A DNA stretch of 20,000 nucleotides, from IMG/VR virus record IMGVR_UViG_3300020421_000008; one strand, 5' to 3'. Shown piece after piece: positions 3,037 to 19,774 of the stretch (position 1 is the stretch's first letter; each line of letters opens with the position of its first letter). Under the pieces are notes generated by a model. It searched no databases and was not told where the DNA came from. It was given only the letters and a program-made list of their open reading frames with translations. The translations under genes were made by a program, and so were the position numbers. The stretch comes from an uncultured virus (IMG/VR IMGVR_UViG_3300020421_000008) (lineage: Duplodnaviria > Heunggongvirae > Uroviricota > Caudoviricetes).

Positions 3037-3795
3037 CCTTTTCGCGGGATTTTCTTGAAACCCTGGATCGGTCTTCCTCGATTTGATCAAAAGTTGTAGT
3101 TTTTGAAAGTTTTCAGCTCAGCTGCAGCTGGCCTGTCAAAAACCTTAGGTAACTTTCTACTCTTCGAAGAATCTGAAGAAAGTTGCAGAAAGGTGCAGTT
3201 TTCGAGAGCTTTCCTGGGGGCCGGAGCTCCCGTCTCCTGGTTGGCCCCGTAAAATGGTGAAAAGTTGTGGTTTTTTAAAGTTTTGCGCTGCTATTGCCGC
3301 TGAGGAAGTGGATCAGCATTCTTAGAAAATGCAAAAAACGCCAGCTTTTGCAAACATTTGGGATGGGCCCCGTGCTGAGTGGCCCGCGGCTTCCCGTAAA
3401 TGCGGCAAAAATCTGACGTTTTTGAAAGTTTTATCGACTTTTACTTTTAGAAGCGGGATCGAAGTAGTTCTCTTTCGAGAGAATCGGTCCACATTCTACG
3501 TTCGGGGACGTTGATGTCATCGAATTGTCGATTGAATCGACGCTTTCTTGAGTTTTCCCGTTGTTTGTCGATTGCTTTTCGTAAGTTTTTCATTTAGTTT
3601 CACCTCTTCCGTTTAACTCCAGTATCTAATGTATAACATCTAGAGATTCTTGTCTAGTAAATAGCCTGTGTCCTTTGACACGTTTGGTAGTTTTAACATG
3701 GCTGAAACATTGTGGCCTGCCGTAGGAACACCATTGAGGTGGAATAGAAGGTTAGGAAGCCCCGATAGAATATAAAGGTAGGTTAGTCCCGCTTA

Positions 3796-9560: not shown

Positions 9561-10463
9561 TTAGACTGACGCAAGTAGCATGTCGCCAGTCCGAATGGTA
9601 AGGCTTTGAGCCTTTGCCGGATCGGATACAACATTAACTTGTTTCAGTTGTTTGCTCTTACCTTTAGTACCGATGTGGTACTCGTAAGACTGTACTGCTT
9701 GATAGAGAGAGTAAGCGTTATGCCCGAAGGTATTTGCTTCTTCCTCGTAGTAGTACATGATTCCATCACGACGTTTTTGCGCAGCATTTTGTGCTTTGGT
9801 ATTAGCGTCTGGATCAAAGTCCAACAGTGGAGCAACTTCGTCAAGGATTGTGTTCCGTAGACCACTGGTCATCGGTAAACCTTTGAGCATAGTTGCATTG
9901 GTGATGAACCTATCAAAAGCATCAGCATAACTTGACATTATCTGAGCTTTTTGGAACAGTAAGCCATCGTGGTTACGAGTTCGCTTCTGTGCAATTTGGA
10001 GAGTACCTTGTCCCTCTTGGTTAGTACAGAAAGGTCGGAACGTAAAACCGATTGCTTTTGTTTTGTAGGTGCTGTTAAGACTAGCAGTGTACATAATGTG
10101 TTTAGTTAAAGAGTCACCGTCACCGAAAGAGAATGTATCTTCTATATCTTGAGTGAACACTAGAACTGCACCATTATCCCATGTCTGCATACCAGTAACA
10201 CTTTCAGGGAACATGGCCTCAGCCGTGTTCAGAAGTGATTGGTATGATCCAGCATAGTAGCCTTCTTTAACGCCAGCATTGAGAACAACTTGAGTACCGT
10301 CTGCCATATCACGGTAAATAGTAAATGACGAATCATCTACAGTTCCGTTAGGAAGAATAGTACCTGTTAGTTGTGGCTCAAAGAGAGCATCAGCATCTAA
10401 CGCAGCATCAGTGGCCGATAAGCCCTGATCCCATGTTTTATTTCTAGTTAGCATATGTGCCAT
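9561..10463 (-). CDS. DUF932/DUF945-like phage/plasmid protein
   Basis: FRPFCTNQ, KRTRN and NAYSLYQAV.SYEYH motifs; 300 aa; GGAGGT RBS. Confidence 0.8.
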   Translation of the reverse strand: MAHMLTRNKTWDQGLSATDAALDADALFEPQLTGTILPNGTVDDSSFTIYRDMADGTQVVLNAGVKEGYYAGSYQSLLNTAEAMFPESVTGMQTWDNGAVLVFTQDIEDTFSFGDGDSLTKHIMYTASLNSTYKTKAIGFTFRPFCTNQEGQGTLQIAQKRTRNHDGLLFQKAQIMSSYADAFDRFITNATMLKGLPMTSGLRNTILDEVAPLLDFDPDANTKAQNAAQKRRDGIMYYYEEEANTFGHNAYSLYQAVQSYEYHIGTKGKSKQLKQVNVVSDPAKAQSLTIRTGDMLLASV

Positions 10464-11396: not shown

Positions 11397-11489
11397 AAGA
11401 ACAGTATGACATACTTTGTTTCAGTTGTCAAGTAATTTTTATTTAAGATTTACTTGCAATGGTATTCAAGACCTGCTACAGTGGAACAC

Positions 11490-11828
11490 ATGAAAGTAAA
11501 AGTTTATTACAACTTACATAAACATACATTTAGTATTCAAACCAAAACCCCGAAGGGGTGGAGGGTTACTGACTATGCTGACTCACTAAACCTGACAGAC
11601 GTTGAGTTTAGAGTGAGTGAGGCTGGCCGTAGAAGGGTGCTAAAGGAAGGCAGGAAGAATGTCCACGCCTTTGTAATCGGAACACTCACAGATGAGGAAT
11701 TAGACACGACAATAGATGTCTCTTACAATCCGTACAAGGCTGGTCATTTCTTTCGCAAGGATAACGGAGAGCCAGTTAAAAAAGCTCGTAAAGTTACCTT
11801 ACTTAATAGGCAAGTTAAAATTTCTTAA
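11490..11828 (+). CDS. conserved phage protein (VYYNLHK..FS...RKNVHAFV.G...YNPYK type); leaderless, start revised to 11490
   Basis: TTGCAA(11454)-17-TACAGT, then 7 nt to the ATG; motif pattern recalled from phage proteins. Confidence 0.85.
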   Translation: MKVKVYYNLHKHTFSIQTKTPKGWRVTDYADSLNLTDVEFRVSEAGRRRVLKEGRKNVHAFVIGTLTDEELDTTIDVSYNPYKAGHFFRKDNGEPVKKARKVTLLNRQVKIS

Positions 11829-13097: not shown

Positions 13098-13481
13098 ATG
13101 AATACAACAGTAATTATTAACCAAACTAAAGTAGAGGAGTTAGCAGCCCAAAAAGTTGTTGAACTTCGTTCCGCTTTAGCAGATGCAAAAGATGCAGTTG
13201 AAGAAGCAGAAGCGCAATTCAAAGCGTTAGATGTTGAATCTGTAACTCTTGCAGACGGAACCAAAGTTGCAATCGTCACACAAAATAGACGAAGCATTGA
13301 CAATGAGGTTCTCAAAGATGTTCTTCCACAAGGACAACATCAAAGAGTAACCAAACGAGTCGGTGACATGAAACTCATTGACGGAGCAATCGAAGCAGGT
13401 TGGTTAGATGGAGACTTGGTAAACCAAGCAATCACCGTCAAAGAAGTACAATCGCTGAAAGTTACCCAACCAAAGCGATAA
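13098..13481 (+). CDS. hypothetical protein with N-terminal coiled coil; paralog of 19394-19774
   Basis: GGAGG RBS; about 74% aa identity to the paralog by manual alignment. Confidence 0.9.
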   Translation: MNTTVIINQTKVEELAAQKVVELRSALADAKDAVEEAEAQFKALDVESVTLADGTKVAIVTQNRRSIDNEVLKDVLPQGQHQRVTKRVGDMKLIDGAIEAGWLDGDLVNQAITVKEVQSLKVTQPKR

Positions 13482-15015: not shown

Positions 15016-15546
15016 ATGGGTGCTAATAGAACTTTAGCGAGAGGAGACTTGCGGGTCGTCAATGGCGACTCGCTTGTTCTCGTTCTTGACATACACGAAG
15101 AAGATGGATACAAGTGGGCAGAAGTTATGCCTATCCACGACCAACTAGACATGGCTACAGCAGTAGACTTAGTTGTGTCTACAGAGTCTCCTTCTCTTAC
15201 CATTTTTGAGGGAAGTGAACTATTAGATCATCTGGTAGTACAGACTGATCTTTTAAGTACTTGTGATCTGGAGCATATCGGAGCATTAGTAGGAGAGTTT
15301 GGTGATCATGAATGTGACTGCCTAAACGAGCTCTGGAGTTCTAAAGAACGTAAACCAACAATTACTAGCGTCTACCACTACACTGGTGAACCTTTCAGTA
15401 ACAAAGGTTTAGAGGAAGCGAAGAAGGACCCACGCTGGTCATTCAAAGTAGATCAAGGTAAACACACTCAAGAGAGGCAAAGTAAGTCATTAACGATCTT
15501 ATTTGAGATGATGGATAACGGAGAACTACAGAACTTAACTCTGTAA
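15016..15546 (+). CDS. hypothetical protein
   Basis: AGGAGGT RBS; TATAAT at 14960. Confidence 0.8.
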   Translation: MGANRTLARGDLRVVNGDSLVLVLDIHEEDGYKWAEVMPIHDQLDMATAVDLVVSTESPSLTIFEGSELLDHLVVQTDLLSTCDLEHIGALVGEFGDHECDCLNELWSSKERKPTITSVYHYTGEPFSNKGLEEAKKDPRWSFKVDQGKHTQERQSKSLTILFEMMDNGELQNLTL

Positions 15547-15637
15547 AATCTTACCTAAAGACTTGCAATTTACTGTAGACGGTGTATAATGGAGTTATCG
15601 CAAGGAAGTACCGAGCGAAGTTAGGAATAGACAAAAG

Positions 15638-15856
15638 ATGTTAAAAGAACTAACAAAAGATACAGTACGAGTAGAACTTGAGGGCCAACTGCAAATGTTT
15701 ACCCAAGATGAACTACTCGGTAACAGAATAGCCAAAGAAGGTTGTACACGATGTTCTTGTGGCTCTAAGTATTGGGAAAATGATCACTGCCATAGTTGCG
15801 GAAAAATGGTCATAGTTGTTCGAGAGTTTCAATACGGAGAACAATTCCCCATCTAA
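15638..15856 (+). CDS. small Zn-ribbon protein (C.RC.CG...C.SCG)
   Basis: Promoter TTGCAA-16-TATAAT at 15563-15590; Cys pattern. Confidence 0.8.
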   Translation: MLKELTKDTVRVELEGQLQMFTQDELLGNRIAKEGCTRCSCGSKYWENDHCHSCGKMVIVVREFQYGEQFPI

Positions 15857-15867
15857 ATCCCAGCAGC

Positions 15868-15897
15868 GAACTCCGGCCCGAAAGGGTCGGGGTTTCT
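15868..15897 (+). terminator. intrinsic terminator with GAAA loop
   Basis: ACTCCGGCCC-GAAA-GGGTCGGGGT-TTC. Confidence 0.75.
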
Positions 15898-15916
15898 GCA
15901 TGTCCTTTTAGAGTGA

Positions 15917-16012
15917 TGTTAAGCCAACCTAACAAAAAGAGTTAAGCATACCTAACCGGGTCCCGATATAGTCGGGGCTATTAGACCTCAGGTAAACTTT
16001 GACCTGACCTCC
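15917..16012 (+). repeat. two GTTAAG-N4-CCTAAC boxes, a GTCCCG-N7-CGGGGC palindrome and GACCT repeats
   Basis: Boxes at 15918-33 and 15941-56; palindrome at 15960-78. Confidence 0.75.
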
Positions 16013-16217
16013 TTCATCTTTTGCTCCTTTTAGCTCTGCCTGAGCTGAGCAAAAACTGTCATTTTTGATTAGTTTTGCCAAATTTTCTACTGGCCTGCCC
16101 GCTGGTCTCCCGTTTTTTGTCAAAAACTTTCAAAAACGACAGATTTTCGCTGCTATTTTGCCGCTATTTTGCCGCTACTGGGAATAAAAAATTATTTAAG
16201 AAATTGTTGGACAAAGG

Positions 16218-16246
16218 TTGCTTTTGTCTCACCCTTATGTTAAGAT
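16218..16246 (+). promoter_or_regulatory. promoter with TGTC element driving an ncRNA
   Basis: TTGCTT-T-TGTCTC-N10-TAAGAT. Confidence 0.65.
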
Positions 16247-16251
16247 GGGCG

Positions 16252-16526
16252 TAGCCCGAAAGGGTGGCAGGGGGAAACCCCGAATTGACAACTGAATATC
16301 CATTCGGTTGGGTTGCAACTAAGGGCCCACCGAACTTCGTGGAAAGAGGTTCTTTTTACCAAAAAACCTACCAGAAGTGGAAACGGAAACCATCAAAAGA
16401 ACCGAAAGGTACGGTGCGGACTCCTCAAAAACCTTGCAAGGTGGAGGGCGAACCTAAATGGCAAACAAGATACCCTTCGCAAGTAGAGAGTGAAGAACCG
16501 ATCCACCGAAGTTCGGTGGGCTTTTC
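16252..16526 (+). ncRNA. candidate structured ncRNA (about 275 nt) rich in GNRA tetraloops
   Basis: GCCC-GAAA-GGGT, GGG-GAAA-CCC, ACC-GAAA-GGT; perfect 15-bp long-range stem 16325-39/16507-21 followed by TTTT. Confidence 0.7.
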
Positions 16527-16555
16527 GCCTGGTTGGGGTTGGGGCGAGCTGCATA

Positions 16556-16675
16556 GCGTAGGTACGCCATAGGGACACCATAGCAGTCTAATAGAAGGAG
16601 AAGAGTCCCGATAGATACGGGACTACTCGACCTTCGACCTGACCTGACCTGCTGCATGACCTGACCTGCTGGTCA
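16556..16675 (+). repeat. composite boundary element
   Basis: TAGGTACGCCA-TAGGGACACCA, AATAGAAGGA, GTCCCG-ATAGATA-CGGGAC (16605-23), (GACCT)n. Confidence 0.85.
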
Positions 16676-16705
16676 GAAATTGACAAAATCTCGCATACCA
16701 GGCAA

Positions 16706-16734
16706 AATCCACCGAGTGTTTAGTTCGGTGGATT
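16706..16734 (-). terminator. terminator of the 16743-17111 gene
   Basis: Minus strand: AATCCACCGA...TCGGTGGATT-TT. Confidence 0.75.
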
Positions 16735-16742
16735 CCCTTCGG

Positions 16743-17111
16743 TTAGCCAAGTGGTGGGATGTTCATTACGGTTCCGTAATCAACATAGTCGTTACCCCGA
16801 AATAAATCTAAAGACAATTTCGACAGTGTAACGAGTGCACTTTGTCGGTTGTTCCGTATTCCTGATTCTACAGGATCGGTACCTTCGACAGTAGTTCCTT
16901 CGATTACTTCCCATACGTCCTCTCCGTACTTCGTGATACGGTGCATTTGTTTAACTACGTATCGCATTTCAGAAGAGAGCATACCCTCTCTGACAGCGAC
17001 GTAGCCAAACCACTCGTCACGAGCTTTCGAGAACGAATAAGCGTAACCTAGAACAGGCACTTGTCCGTCTTGACTAATATCTATACAAACACTATCTGTT
17101 CGTGTAAACAT
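16743..17111 (-). CDS. hypothetical protein
   Basis: GAAAGGA RBS; TGTC promoter at 17219-17240. Confidence 0.8.
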   Translation of the reverse strand: MFTRTDSVCIDISQDGQVPVLGYAYSFSKARDEWFGYVAVREGMLSSEMRYVVKQMHRITKYGEDVWEVIEGTTVEGTDPVESGIRNNRQSALVTLSKLSLDLFRGNDYVDYGTVMNIPPLG

Positions 17112-18151: not shown

Positions 18152-18487
18152 TTAAGCAGCGATTCGTCGCAGGCCACGGGCTTCCGAAGCGTACTCGCTA
18201 AGGGTTTTCGTAGCCGTAAACCATGCATCACGTTCGAGGAACATATTTGCAGGAAGTGAATCAAATTCACTTTGAGAGACATAACCTAGTTCTGGAAACC
18301 CCAGACCAAGATCACATAGGCCGAAGAAGATTCCATCTTCGTCCATCTCTGTAAGCAACCATGTCGCCCCTGCCCCTGCCGTGAATATTTTCACTACAGG
18401 TTTGTGGTCGATCCCTCCTTCTCCTTCGAGATTGGCTTCGTGGTTTGCCAGAAGCCGTTTACGTTGATCAGCAGTGATTAGTTTCAT
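18152..18487 (-). CDS. DUF2958-family protein
   Basis: PVVKIFT..AGATWLLTE, FGLCDLGLGFPELGYVS and ERD.WF motifs. Confidence 0.9.
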   Translation of the reverse strand: MKLITADQRKRLLANHEANLEGEGGIDHKPVVKIFTAGAGATWLLTEMDEDGIFFGLCDLGLGFPELGYVSQSEFDSLPANMFLERDAWFTATKTLSEYASEARGLRRIAA

Positions 18488-19393: not shown

Positions 19394-19774
19394 ATGGATA
19401 CTTTATTAGTGAATGATCGCAAGATCAGCGAACTAACCGCACAGCGAGTCGTGGAAGCACGGAGCGCTCTTGCAGAAGCAAGGGAAGCGGTTGAGGAAGC
19501 AGAACTTGCTTTCCGAGCGTTAGAAGTTGAAAGCGTAACCCTCGCAGACGGAACGAAAGTTGCAATAGTGAATCAAAACAGACGATCTATTGACAACGAT
19601 GTTCTGAAAGCGATTCTTCCGCAAGGGCAACACCAACGTGTTACCAAGCGAGTCGGTGAGATGAAACTTATTGACGGTGCGGTTGAAGCAGGGTGGCTAG
19701 ATAGCGATCTTGTTGGTAAAGCGATCAACATCAAAGAAGTTTCTTCCGTCAAAGTTACACAACCAAGACGGTAA
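19394..19774 (+). CDS. hypothetical protein; paralog of 13098-13481
   Basis: GAAAGGG RBS; shared VESVTLADGTKVAIV and LPQGQHQRVTKRVG blocks. Confidence 0.9.
   Translation: MDTLLVNDRKISELTAQRVVEARSALAEAREAVEEAELAFRALEVESVTLADGTKVAIVNQNRRSIDNDVLKAILPQGQHQRVTKRVGEMKLIDGAVEAGWLDSDLVGKAINIKEVSSVKVTQPRR

Follow-up and report, generated by a model that had tools for sequence, protein, structure and literature searches.

What is encoded by a few hundred nucleotides of phage DNA that carry a promoter and a dense series of hairpins? The question is raised by positions 16224–16526 of the 20,000-nucleotide (nt) stretch analysed here (hereafter the window), which derives from an uncultured virus of the Caudoviricetes (IMG/VR record IMGVR_UViG_3300020421_000008). 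An earlier note, made from the letters alone, had read the region as a structured non-coding RNA (ncRNA) occupying its own cassette, and all the elements that it listed, namely the promoter, the hairpins, a 15-base-pair (bp) stem and the palindromes at 15960–78 and 16605–23, are present in the sequence. Its central idea has held up: homology to other loci is confined to promoter, RNA and terminator, compensatory changes are found in the fold, and no reading frame is conserved. We consider it probable that 16224–16526 is a stand-alone gene for a structured ncRNA of a new family, carried as the cargo of a shuffling cassette. As judged by sequence comparison, the unit is demonstrably conserved, bounded and non-coding, with a fold that is supported by covariation.

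Conservation and boundaries of the unit

A pattern scan of metagenome contigs recovered seven loci, three near-identical to the window and four diverged, the latter sharing 80.0% (L098), 82.1% (L100), 75.5% (L101) and 81.9% (L103) nt identity with it; with the window included, the diverged sequences make five, which represent three lineages. Similarity begins at 16224 or 16225 (16237 in L100, where the contig ends) and stops between 16483 and 16526, and the flanks of the four homologs show no similarity to the window at E ≤ 1e-5. The conserved block therefore corresponds exactly to the promoter spacer, the −10 element, the RNA and the putative terminator.

The phages that carry the homologs are related to that of the window, but distantly. 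An open reading frame (ORF) upstream of the RNA in L098 and L101 is 33–34% identical to the product of window 15016–15546, a DUF2958 fragment at the same two loci is 53–54% identical to 18152–18487, and a downstream, opposite-strand ORF is 45–49% identical to an ORF at 21938–22201 (window numbering) of G001, a 128,360-bp IMG/VR record, estimated to be 87% complete, to which the window is 99.875% identical (24 mismatches and one gap). On this comparison the RNA, with 75–82% nt identity, is much better kept than the neighbouring proteins (33–54% amino-acid identity).

A distant blastn search of GenBank phages gave no match to the RNA, and when 16200–16660 was compared by BLAST with 50 related IMG/VR phage records, one matched, through a 28-nt piece of the tail box only. 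Exact and IUPAC patterns, four in viral_contigs and two in genome_contigs, returned 0 matches each, and a locus search in viral_contigs by way of the ORF spanning the RNA found no relative. Two covariance models, R1 for the core and R2 for the 5′ domain, were searched against G001, the homolog loci (R1 also against L096) and the 50 relatives, and recovered only the five known copies, at 190–256 bits and 101–108 bits, respectively; additional hits were at chance level (14.7 bits at 16044–16153 on the − strand, 18.2 bits within the gene for the prohead protease and, among the relatives, 10.1 and 13.7 bits).

Architecture of the RNA

The promoter and the elements of the predicted RNA, all on the + strand, are as follows.

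16218–16246, +: sigma-70-type promoter with extended −10, by consensus only; TTGCTT at 16218–23, 17-nt spacer with TTGTCTCAC, TG at 16238–39 and TAAGAT at 16241–46
16253–16526, +: ncRNA of ~274 nt, its start placed 7 nt past the −10 and its end placed in the U-tract
16254–16265, +: P1, GCCC-GAAA-GGGU, hairpin of the 5′ domain with a GNRA loop
16270–16281, +: P2, GGGG-GAAA-CCCC, hairpin of the 5′ domain with a GNRA loop
16289–97/16302–10, +: P3, CAACTGAAT/ATTCGGTTG, 9 bp with an AUCC loop, third hairpin of the 5′ domain (16254–16310)
16312–16319, +: octamer GUUGCAAC, complementary to itself, within the P3–P4 linker
16321–16337/16509–16525, +: P4, long closing helix; 17 aligned pairs, 5 changed on both sides, 96.5% of cells paired
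16348–16355/16492–16499, +: P6, GGUUCUUU with GAAGAACC; 7 pairs, 2 changed on both sides, 100% paired
16368–71/16483–86, +: P7a, CUAC; 4 pairs, 2 changed on both sides
5′ strand within 16368–16380, pairing with 16473–78, +: P7b, GAAGUGG; 6 pairs, all invariant
16390–93/16416–19, +: P8, carrying an ACC-GAAA-GGU hairpin; pairs mostly invariant
16421–24/16443–46, +: P9, CUCC/GGAG, carrying an ACCU-UGCA-AGGU hairpin (16431–42); pairs mostly invariant
16503–16528, +: 3′ arm of P4 and U-tract GCUUUUCGCC, putative intrinsic terminator; the window allele can also form a local hairpin, CCACCGA-AGU-UCGGUGG

The promoters of the homologs are near consensus, with TTGACA, a spacer of 17 nt, and TACAAT, TACGAT or TATACT, and the upstream TG is retained. 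When 16246–16530 is folded as + strand RNA, the predicted energy is −102.7 kcal/mol (z −3.9), which none of 200 dinucleotide shuffles attains; the − strand of the same stretch has a z of −3.57. The fold would consist of a near-invariant 5′ domain of three hairpins, two of them with GNRA loops, and a multi-branched core closed by P4. Mean column identity in the 5′ domain is 96% over the three lineages, and its sole loop change, from GAAA to GCAA in P1 of L103, keeps the GNRA form. P1–P3 and most inner helices never vary, and so their pairs are neither supported nor contradicted by covariation.

The perfect 15-bp stem (16325–39/16507–21) becomes, with the flanking AAG/UUU, the 17 aligned pairs of P4. 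In all five sequences the 3′ arm of this long-range stem is followed by UUUUC, UUUUCUUUU or UUCUUUC, and we infer that P4 itself serves as the terminator stem. The two larger insertions of the homologs, both in the inner branches, are themselves hairpins (CCGCUCC-GAAA-GGGGUGG in L101, GCCC-AAAGAAC-GGGC in L103). Within the core, the earlier note had paired GGTTCTTTT with AAAAGAACC. These are complementary in the window, but the changes of the L098 lineage (G to A and U to C) are compensated by GAAGAACC: AAAAGAACC (16394–16402) is invariant, and GGTTCTTTT pairs with the second AAGAACC copy, close to the 3′ end at 16492–99.

The octamer GUUGCAAC appears in the L098 lineage as GUAGCUAC, with positions 3 and 6 changed jointly and self-complementarity retained in a single event; both changes also fall on third positions of a TTG-initiated frame considered below. 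In the DNA, GTTGCAAC becomes GTAGCTAC in that lineage, both perfect palindromes, which could mark a site at which the RNA dimerises or a site in the DNA, or could be two synonymous changes that happen to coincide.

Two candidate helices were rejected, namely an extension of P3 by GUUGA/UAGCU, which is not retained in the window lineage, and a GGUGGC/GCWACU helix given by RNAalifold, which is broken in two of the five sequences. A terminator-like hairpin inside the RNA (GAACTTC...GAGGTTC with TTTTT, 16332–16352) was listed by a simple scan, its pairing being lost in the L098 lineage.

Covariation and the level at which the fold acts

The covariation analysis used an alignment of the five sequences and an edited RNAalifold fold, in which two weak 5′ helices were swapped for the GNRA hairpin P1 to give 70 pairs in 12 helices; RNAalifold alone gave 77 pairs, nine of them changed on both sides. 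Standard pairs make up 98.3% of 348 cells, a proportion equalled by none of 500 shuffles. In the edited fold, nine of the 70 pairs are changed on both sides (equalled in two of 500 shuffles), and these lie in P4 (5/17), P6 (2/7) and P7a (2/4). The covariation score is 0.161 versus 0.079 in shuffles (0/500), and when the 3′ partners are slid by 1–3 columns, the both-side changes fall to 0–1 and the paired cells to 29–52%. Compensatory changes thus go beyond the controls, as is expected of a structured ncRNA, on an alignment that spans three lineages only. The fold contains 26 G-U cells, each of which would read as a C-A mismatch if the opposite strand were the RNA, versus six non-standard cells, and this excess therefore favours the + strand as the RNA; the promoter and the U-tract likewise lie on the + strand.

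The same data bear on the idea that the block acts as DNA, for instance as an origin, a recombination site or a regulator-binding array, in which the hairpins are incidental or form in single-stranded DNA. The cassette borders are indeed rich in palindromes and repeats, a 19-mer upstream is common to iteron-like repeats at 3095–3432, and the octamer retains its dyad symmetry in both forms. Such an element is nevertheless scarcely credible here, as the G-U cells favour one strand as RNA, the compensatory changes are long-range, ~170 nt apart, GNRA loops are kept through GAAA to GCAA, insertions take the form of hairpins, and the limits of the conserved block coincide exactly with a promoter and a U-tract.

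Coding potential

An open GTG-initiated frame of 102 amino acids (aa; 16264–16572) spans the RNA unit, and the earlier note had held that protein-level conservation of this ORF would speak against an RNA; none was found. A small protein gene, be it this ORF or a shorter peptide from the conserved TTG at 16285 (LTTEYPFGWVATK...), could be argued for, given that the open frame covers the unit, that the first 13 codons past the TTG are near-invariant with three substitutions, all synonymous third positions, and that AGGGGG lies 11 nt upstream of the TTG. Most of the evidence runs the other way, however, and we regard a protein as highly improbable. A search of the 102-aa ORF against 5.8 billion proteins returned only the self-match. 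The longest overlapping + strand ORF differs in length in every sequence (102 aa in the window, 57 in L098, 72 in L100, 87 in L101 and 90 in L103), and the C-terminal parts are unrelated. Substitutions are spread evenly over codon positions (17/19/20 against L098 and 16/13/12 against L103), and all five indels relative to L098 are of 1 or 2 nt, none being a multiple of three; invariant blocks such as AAGAACCGAAAGGT are therefore read in different frames in different lineages. The changes within 16324–16339 are non-synonymous in the TTG frame, yet have their compensating partners in the 3′ arm of P4. An ATG start is lacking, and hairpin P2 would sequester the putative ribosome-binding stretch. 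By these comparisons, neither a reading frame conserved among the homologs nor a third-position bias is present. An 11-codon short ORF behind GGAGG at 16458 was also rejected, its AUG being missing in the L098 lineage.

Switch, leader, retron and known RNA families

No family in Rfam 15 (4227 models, gathering thresholds) matches the RNA, there being no hits in the 20 kb window and none in the four homolog loci. At E ≤ 10 over 15700–17000, only mir-8510 (E 7) and RsmY (E 7.5) were returned, both at chance level and both outside the RNA. Literature text searches found no description of the RNA, although an unnamed motif is not findable by words, so that its unpublished status rests mainly on Rfam.

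The 3′ arm of P4 had been proposed to switch between the closing stem and a terminator hairpin of its own, the two folds being mutually exclusive. This does not extend beyond the window allele, in which the local hairpin CCACCGA-AGU-UCGGUGG has a predicted energy of −12.2 kcal/mol, compared with −2.7 in L098, L100 and L101 and −4.9 in L103, whereas the two-arm P4 duplex reaches −32 to −40 kcal/mol in all sequences. The conserved feature is therefore P4 with its U-rich tail, and not a switch. A related proposal is that of a cis-acting leader or riboswitch, in which the long helix and the local hairpin would decide between termination and read-through. The 3′ arm of the window allele can indeed fold either alone or with the 5′ arm, and GNRA-rich multi-helix folds are typical of aptamers. 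We nonetheless rate a leader as very unlikely: the local hairpin has little stability in the other two lineages, homology ends at the terminator, the next recognisable downstream protein gene lies on the opposite strand in the window (16743–17111) and at all four homolog loci, and no Rfam riboswitch was matched even at E ≤ 10. With neither a co-oriented gene nor conserved exclusive folds, the RNA would appear to control no downstream gene.

A likeness to retrons, in which an msr-msd template RNA is flanked by inverted repeats that prime reverse transcription, had also been raised, since a long inverted repeat closes ~170 nt of the unit. This has fared worst, and a retron can be set aside with near certainty. 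A six-frame search of the 128 kb G001 record with RVT_1 (PF00078) gave no matches, while the same search rang in three of 14 control genomes; no reverse transcriptase was found among the 83 of 99 G001 ORFs of at least 110 aa that were scanned, the other 16 being covered by the six-frame search, and the homolog flanks hold no plausible reverse transcriptase ORF. Furthermore, the 5′ arm of the long stem begins at 16321, 69 nt inside the RNA and behind the conserved three-hairpin domain, not at the RNA end.

Expression, population data and points of doubt

Contigs of four sequencing runs were examined, in which gaps in coverage, including that at 16411–16526 in the RNA library, are not evidence of absence. 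One RNA library holds contigs of two alleles over 16290–16383, one contig over 16364–16410 and one over 16761–16935, and none over 15600–16247 or 16411–16733. One of its alleles carries T16320C, G16324A, G16325C and G16339A, and is thus of the L103 type. As expression evidence these metatranscriptome contigs are weak, giving no strand, ends or level. Among the DNA contigs, one has another −35 element upstream of the RNA, the junction lying at 16225. In another, from run X13, 15956 is joined to 16558, so that a 601-nt block comprising palindrome, spacer, promoter, RNA and terminator is missing; this junction is seen in a single contig with 32 letters on its shorter side, and is weak.

Several points weigh against a stand-alone RNA gene. 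The contigs of the RNA library could be carried-over DNA, and the promoter and terminator are consensus readings only. A simple terminator scan did not list the 3′ end of the RNA, because its tail has four T in eight positions and the rule needs five. The pairs of the 5′ domain are invariant, so that hairpins P1–P3 are unproven, and, as the five sequences amount to three lineages, few independent events lie behind the covariation. A short peptide is hinted at by the three substitutions within 16285–16323, each of which is synonymous and falls on a third codon position of the TTG frame; two of them likewise preserve the self-complementarity of the octamer, and on such single events the two explanations are inseparable. 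Lastly, the RNA was not found in any of the 50 related phage records, two of which are at least 90% complete, and it is therefore dispensable.

A cassette with repeated borders

The RNA unit is bordered by motifs that recur elsewhere in the phage genome.

15960–15978, no strand: palindrome at the upstream boundary, GTCCCG-N7-CGGGGC, with GACCT repeats behind it; one of six of its kind in the window, G001 having 12
16123–16141, +: 19-mer AAAACTTTCAAAAACGACA, 77 nt upstream of the −35 of the RNA; possible regulator site
16528–16668, +: cassette tail, with CCTGGTTG at 16528–35, the TAGGGACACCAT box at 16570–81, palindrome GTCCCGATAGATACGGGAC at 16605–23 and GACCT repeats at 16630–68

The promoter belongs to a TGTC class that is present in five copies in the window (12950+, 16216+, 19271+, 17281− and 3059−), and the post-terminator tail, consisting of CCTGGTTG, the TAGGGACACCAT box, a GYCCCG-N7-CGGGRC palindrome and GACCT repeats, recurs behind other units. 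Motif families are hence repeated at unit borders, as is expected of shuffling cassettes, and the RNA module adjoins different neighbours in L100 and L103. The tail itself is outside the conserved RNA module, to judge from the similarity to diverged homologs, which stops at 16520–16526.

The box TAGGRAYRCCAT has nine copies in the window (2296, 2757, 2768, 3723, 4194, 12337, 12348, 16570 and 18992) and 11 in G001, all of them on the + strand and often in tandem, between a terminator with CCTGGKYG and the GYCCCG-N7-CGGGRC palindrome. The 19-mer AAAACTTTCAAAAACNACA has four matches in the window versus 0.07 expected. One of these is the + strand copy at 16123–16141, and the other three (3095–3113, 3266–3284 and 3414–3432) lie on the − strand, upstream of the minus-strand TGTC-class promoter at ~3059. 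The 19-mer, which resembles an iteron or a site for a regulator, is missing upstream of the RNA homologs.

A second conserved non-coding module is located at 21297–21524 in window numbering (L011:8980–9207, on the − strand of G001) and at L100:353–582, the G001 and L100 copies being 89% identical. In L100 it follows the RNA homolog at a distance of ~55 nt. Its RNAalifold fold has 62 pairs, three of which are changed on both sides, and it ends in a hairpin and a T-run; it may be another RNA cargo.

The phage and the surrounding genes

A Pfam scan of 83 of the 99 ORFs of at least 110 aa in G001 identified, among other matches, a portal, a terminase, an HK97-type capsid, a tail sheath and baseplate J, as well as RecA, a sigma-70 factor and a family A DNA polymerase; the remaining 16 lie inside the window, whose main ORFs were scanned separately. 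The capsid protein is nearest to that of Gordonia phage GMA6 (48.1%), followed by Brevibacterium phage Cantare (46.6%), and WhiB-like and L5 gp82-like genes are present in the window. The sequencing runs that hold the stretch are marine, with 20 of the 24 listed runs (11 studies) holding all or part of it. Taking the capsid relatives, these genes and the marine runs together, we therefore place the phage, which is not T4-type, among the marine myoviruses, with an actinobacterium as its putative host.

The RNA unit sits within a ~20 kb region of small units, in which long ORFs are few. Genes in this region (609–2737, 9561–10463, 11454–11828 and 18152–18487) include Fe-S biosynthesis-like and WhiB-like genes, a gene that matches a PHROG family bearing the label RNase E, and others of NikA-like, DUF932, L5 gp82-like and DUF2958 type. 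The DUF932, DUF2958 and NikA-like families are common in plasmid leading regions, of which the gene mix of this region is reminiscent. The genes flanking the RNA (15016–15546 and 16743–17111) have no close relatives in viral_contigs. The conserved upstream neighbour of 176 aa has seven database relatives, all without names, and its AlphaFold model, with a mean pLDDT (predicted local distance difference test) of 41.4, is unusable. Of 14 nearby proteins, 13 matched no PADLOC family and the remaining one, an AAA ATPase, gave weak P-loop matches only. A search of the window and the homolog loci revealed neither tRNA nor tmRNA.

The window also holds a paralogous gene pair at 13098–13481 (127 aa) and 19394–19774 (126 aa), which is ~75% identical at the nt level and without a family match; each member has a TGTC-class promoter and a ~110-nt leader upstream.

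Possible modes of action

If the unit is an RNA gene, host RNA polymerase would start near 16253, at the extended −10 sigma-70-type promoter, and would stop near 16526, where the 3′ arm of the 17-bp P4 is followed by the U-tract, both positions being taken from consensus signals. The product would be a stable RNA of ~274 nt, with a 5′-terminal hairpin, made early in infection and acting in trans. One tentative suggestion, which we hold to be possible though some way short of an even chance, is that its invariant 5′ domain binds a protein, of host or phage origin, or else a small ligand, with a part in host takeover or counter-defence. The 70-nt 5′ domain is near-invariant while the core is 20–25% diverged, which suggests that the former is a contact surface and the latter a scaffold. 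The unit also lies among small early-type genes and is dispensable in relatives, and a role in takeover or counter-defence is therefore favoured.

The same gene could act in another way, as a ribozyme or as an RNA that self-assembles, for example via the octamer. In keeping with this are the ~12 helices, three to four GNRA loops and invariant joining regions of the fold, an octamer that remains self-complementary through a double change, and the precedent of the large ornate bacterial RNAs GOLLD, ROOL and OLE, which are described as forming homo-oligomers (PMC12286853, from the part of the paper available). The RNA, however, matches no self-cleaving or large-RNA family of Rfam, and the covariation at the octamer is a single event for which a coding-frame explanation is also available; we find such an action distinctly unlikely. 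A broader and speculative form, also unlikely as it stands, would make the unit one of several RNA-only effectors swapped among marine phages: a ribozyme, an ornate RNA dimerising through GUUGCAAC/GUAGCUAC, or an aptamer that sponges a host immune signal or protein. The notion of several such cargos arises because the second conserved structured module adjoins the RNA in L100.

Whichever action applies, ncRNAs of more than 200 nt with complex folds are uncommon, and those with an established function carry out sophisticated chemistry or assembly. The RNA surpasses the surrounding proteins in conservation. Uncultured marine phages exchange it as a discrete unit, and the other genes of the region in which it lies are small and of takeover or counter-defence type. 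It is a compact, well-delimited candidate for biochemistry, its weight limited by few lineages, an inferred host and a basis in sequence.

Comparison with known systems

By the tests run, the RNA is a member of none of the systems compared here, each of which it resembles in part. As in retron msr-msd, a long inverted repeat encloses a structured region, but no reverse transcriptase was found, the repeat is not at the RNA termini, and the 3′ arm would double as a terminator stem.

With GOLLD, ROOL and OLE, as far as these are covered in the part of the source available (PMC12286853), the RNA shares a complex multi-helix fold with GNRA loops, a non-coding nature and discovery through comparison of environmental DNA, some of those RNAs being phage-borne. 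It is, however, smaller (~275–310 nt), matches none of their Rfam models and is known from three lineages only. Further large ornate RNAs of unknown function are raiA, HEARO and IMES.

Cluster A mycobacteriophages such as L5, D29 and StarStuff are described as expressing abundant, stable early ncRNAs of unknown function (PMC5712189). In the portion of that paper available, these resemble the RNA in being stand-alone actinophage non-coding transcripts from an early sigma-70-type promoter, with no conserved ORF; they differ in coming from the right end of the genome behind Pleft, and no conserved multi-helix fold is reported for them there. The RNA studied here, in contrast, is the cargo of a mobile cassette, has a covariation-supported fold and is known from sequence, so that the two are likened by description only.

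The cassette itself resembles in its working the promoter early stem-loop (PeSL) cassettes in hyperplastic regions of T4-type phages, which, in the parts of the reports available, likewise have repeated promoter and terminator motifs and units that are gained, lost and reordered (PMC2839356, PMC4122927). The phage group and the motif set differ, the latter consisting here of the TGTC-spacer promoter, CCTGGTTG, the TAGGGACACCAT box, GYCCCG palindromes and GACCT repeats. PeSL cargo consists of small ORFs, whereas the cargo here is a structured RNA, and the likeness is one of working, not of membership. With a conserved RNA as cassette cargo, shuffling phage cassettes can therefore carry RNA besides tiny ORFs.

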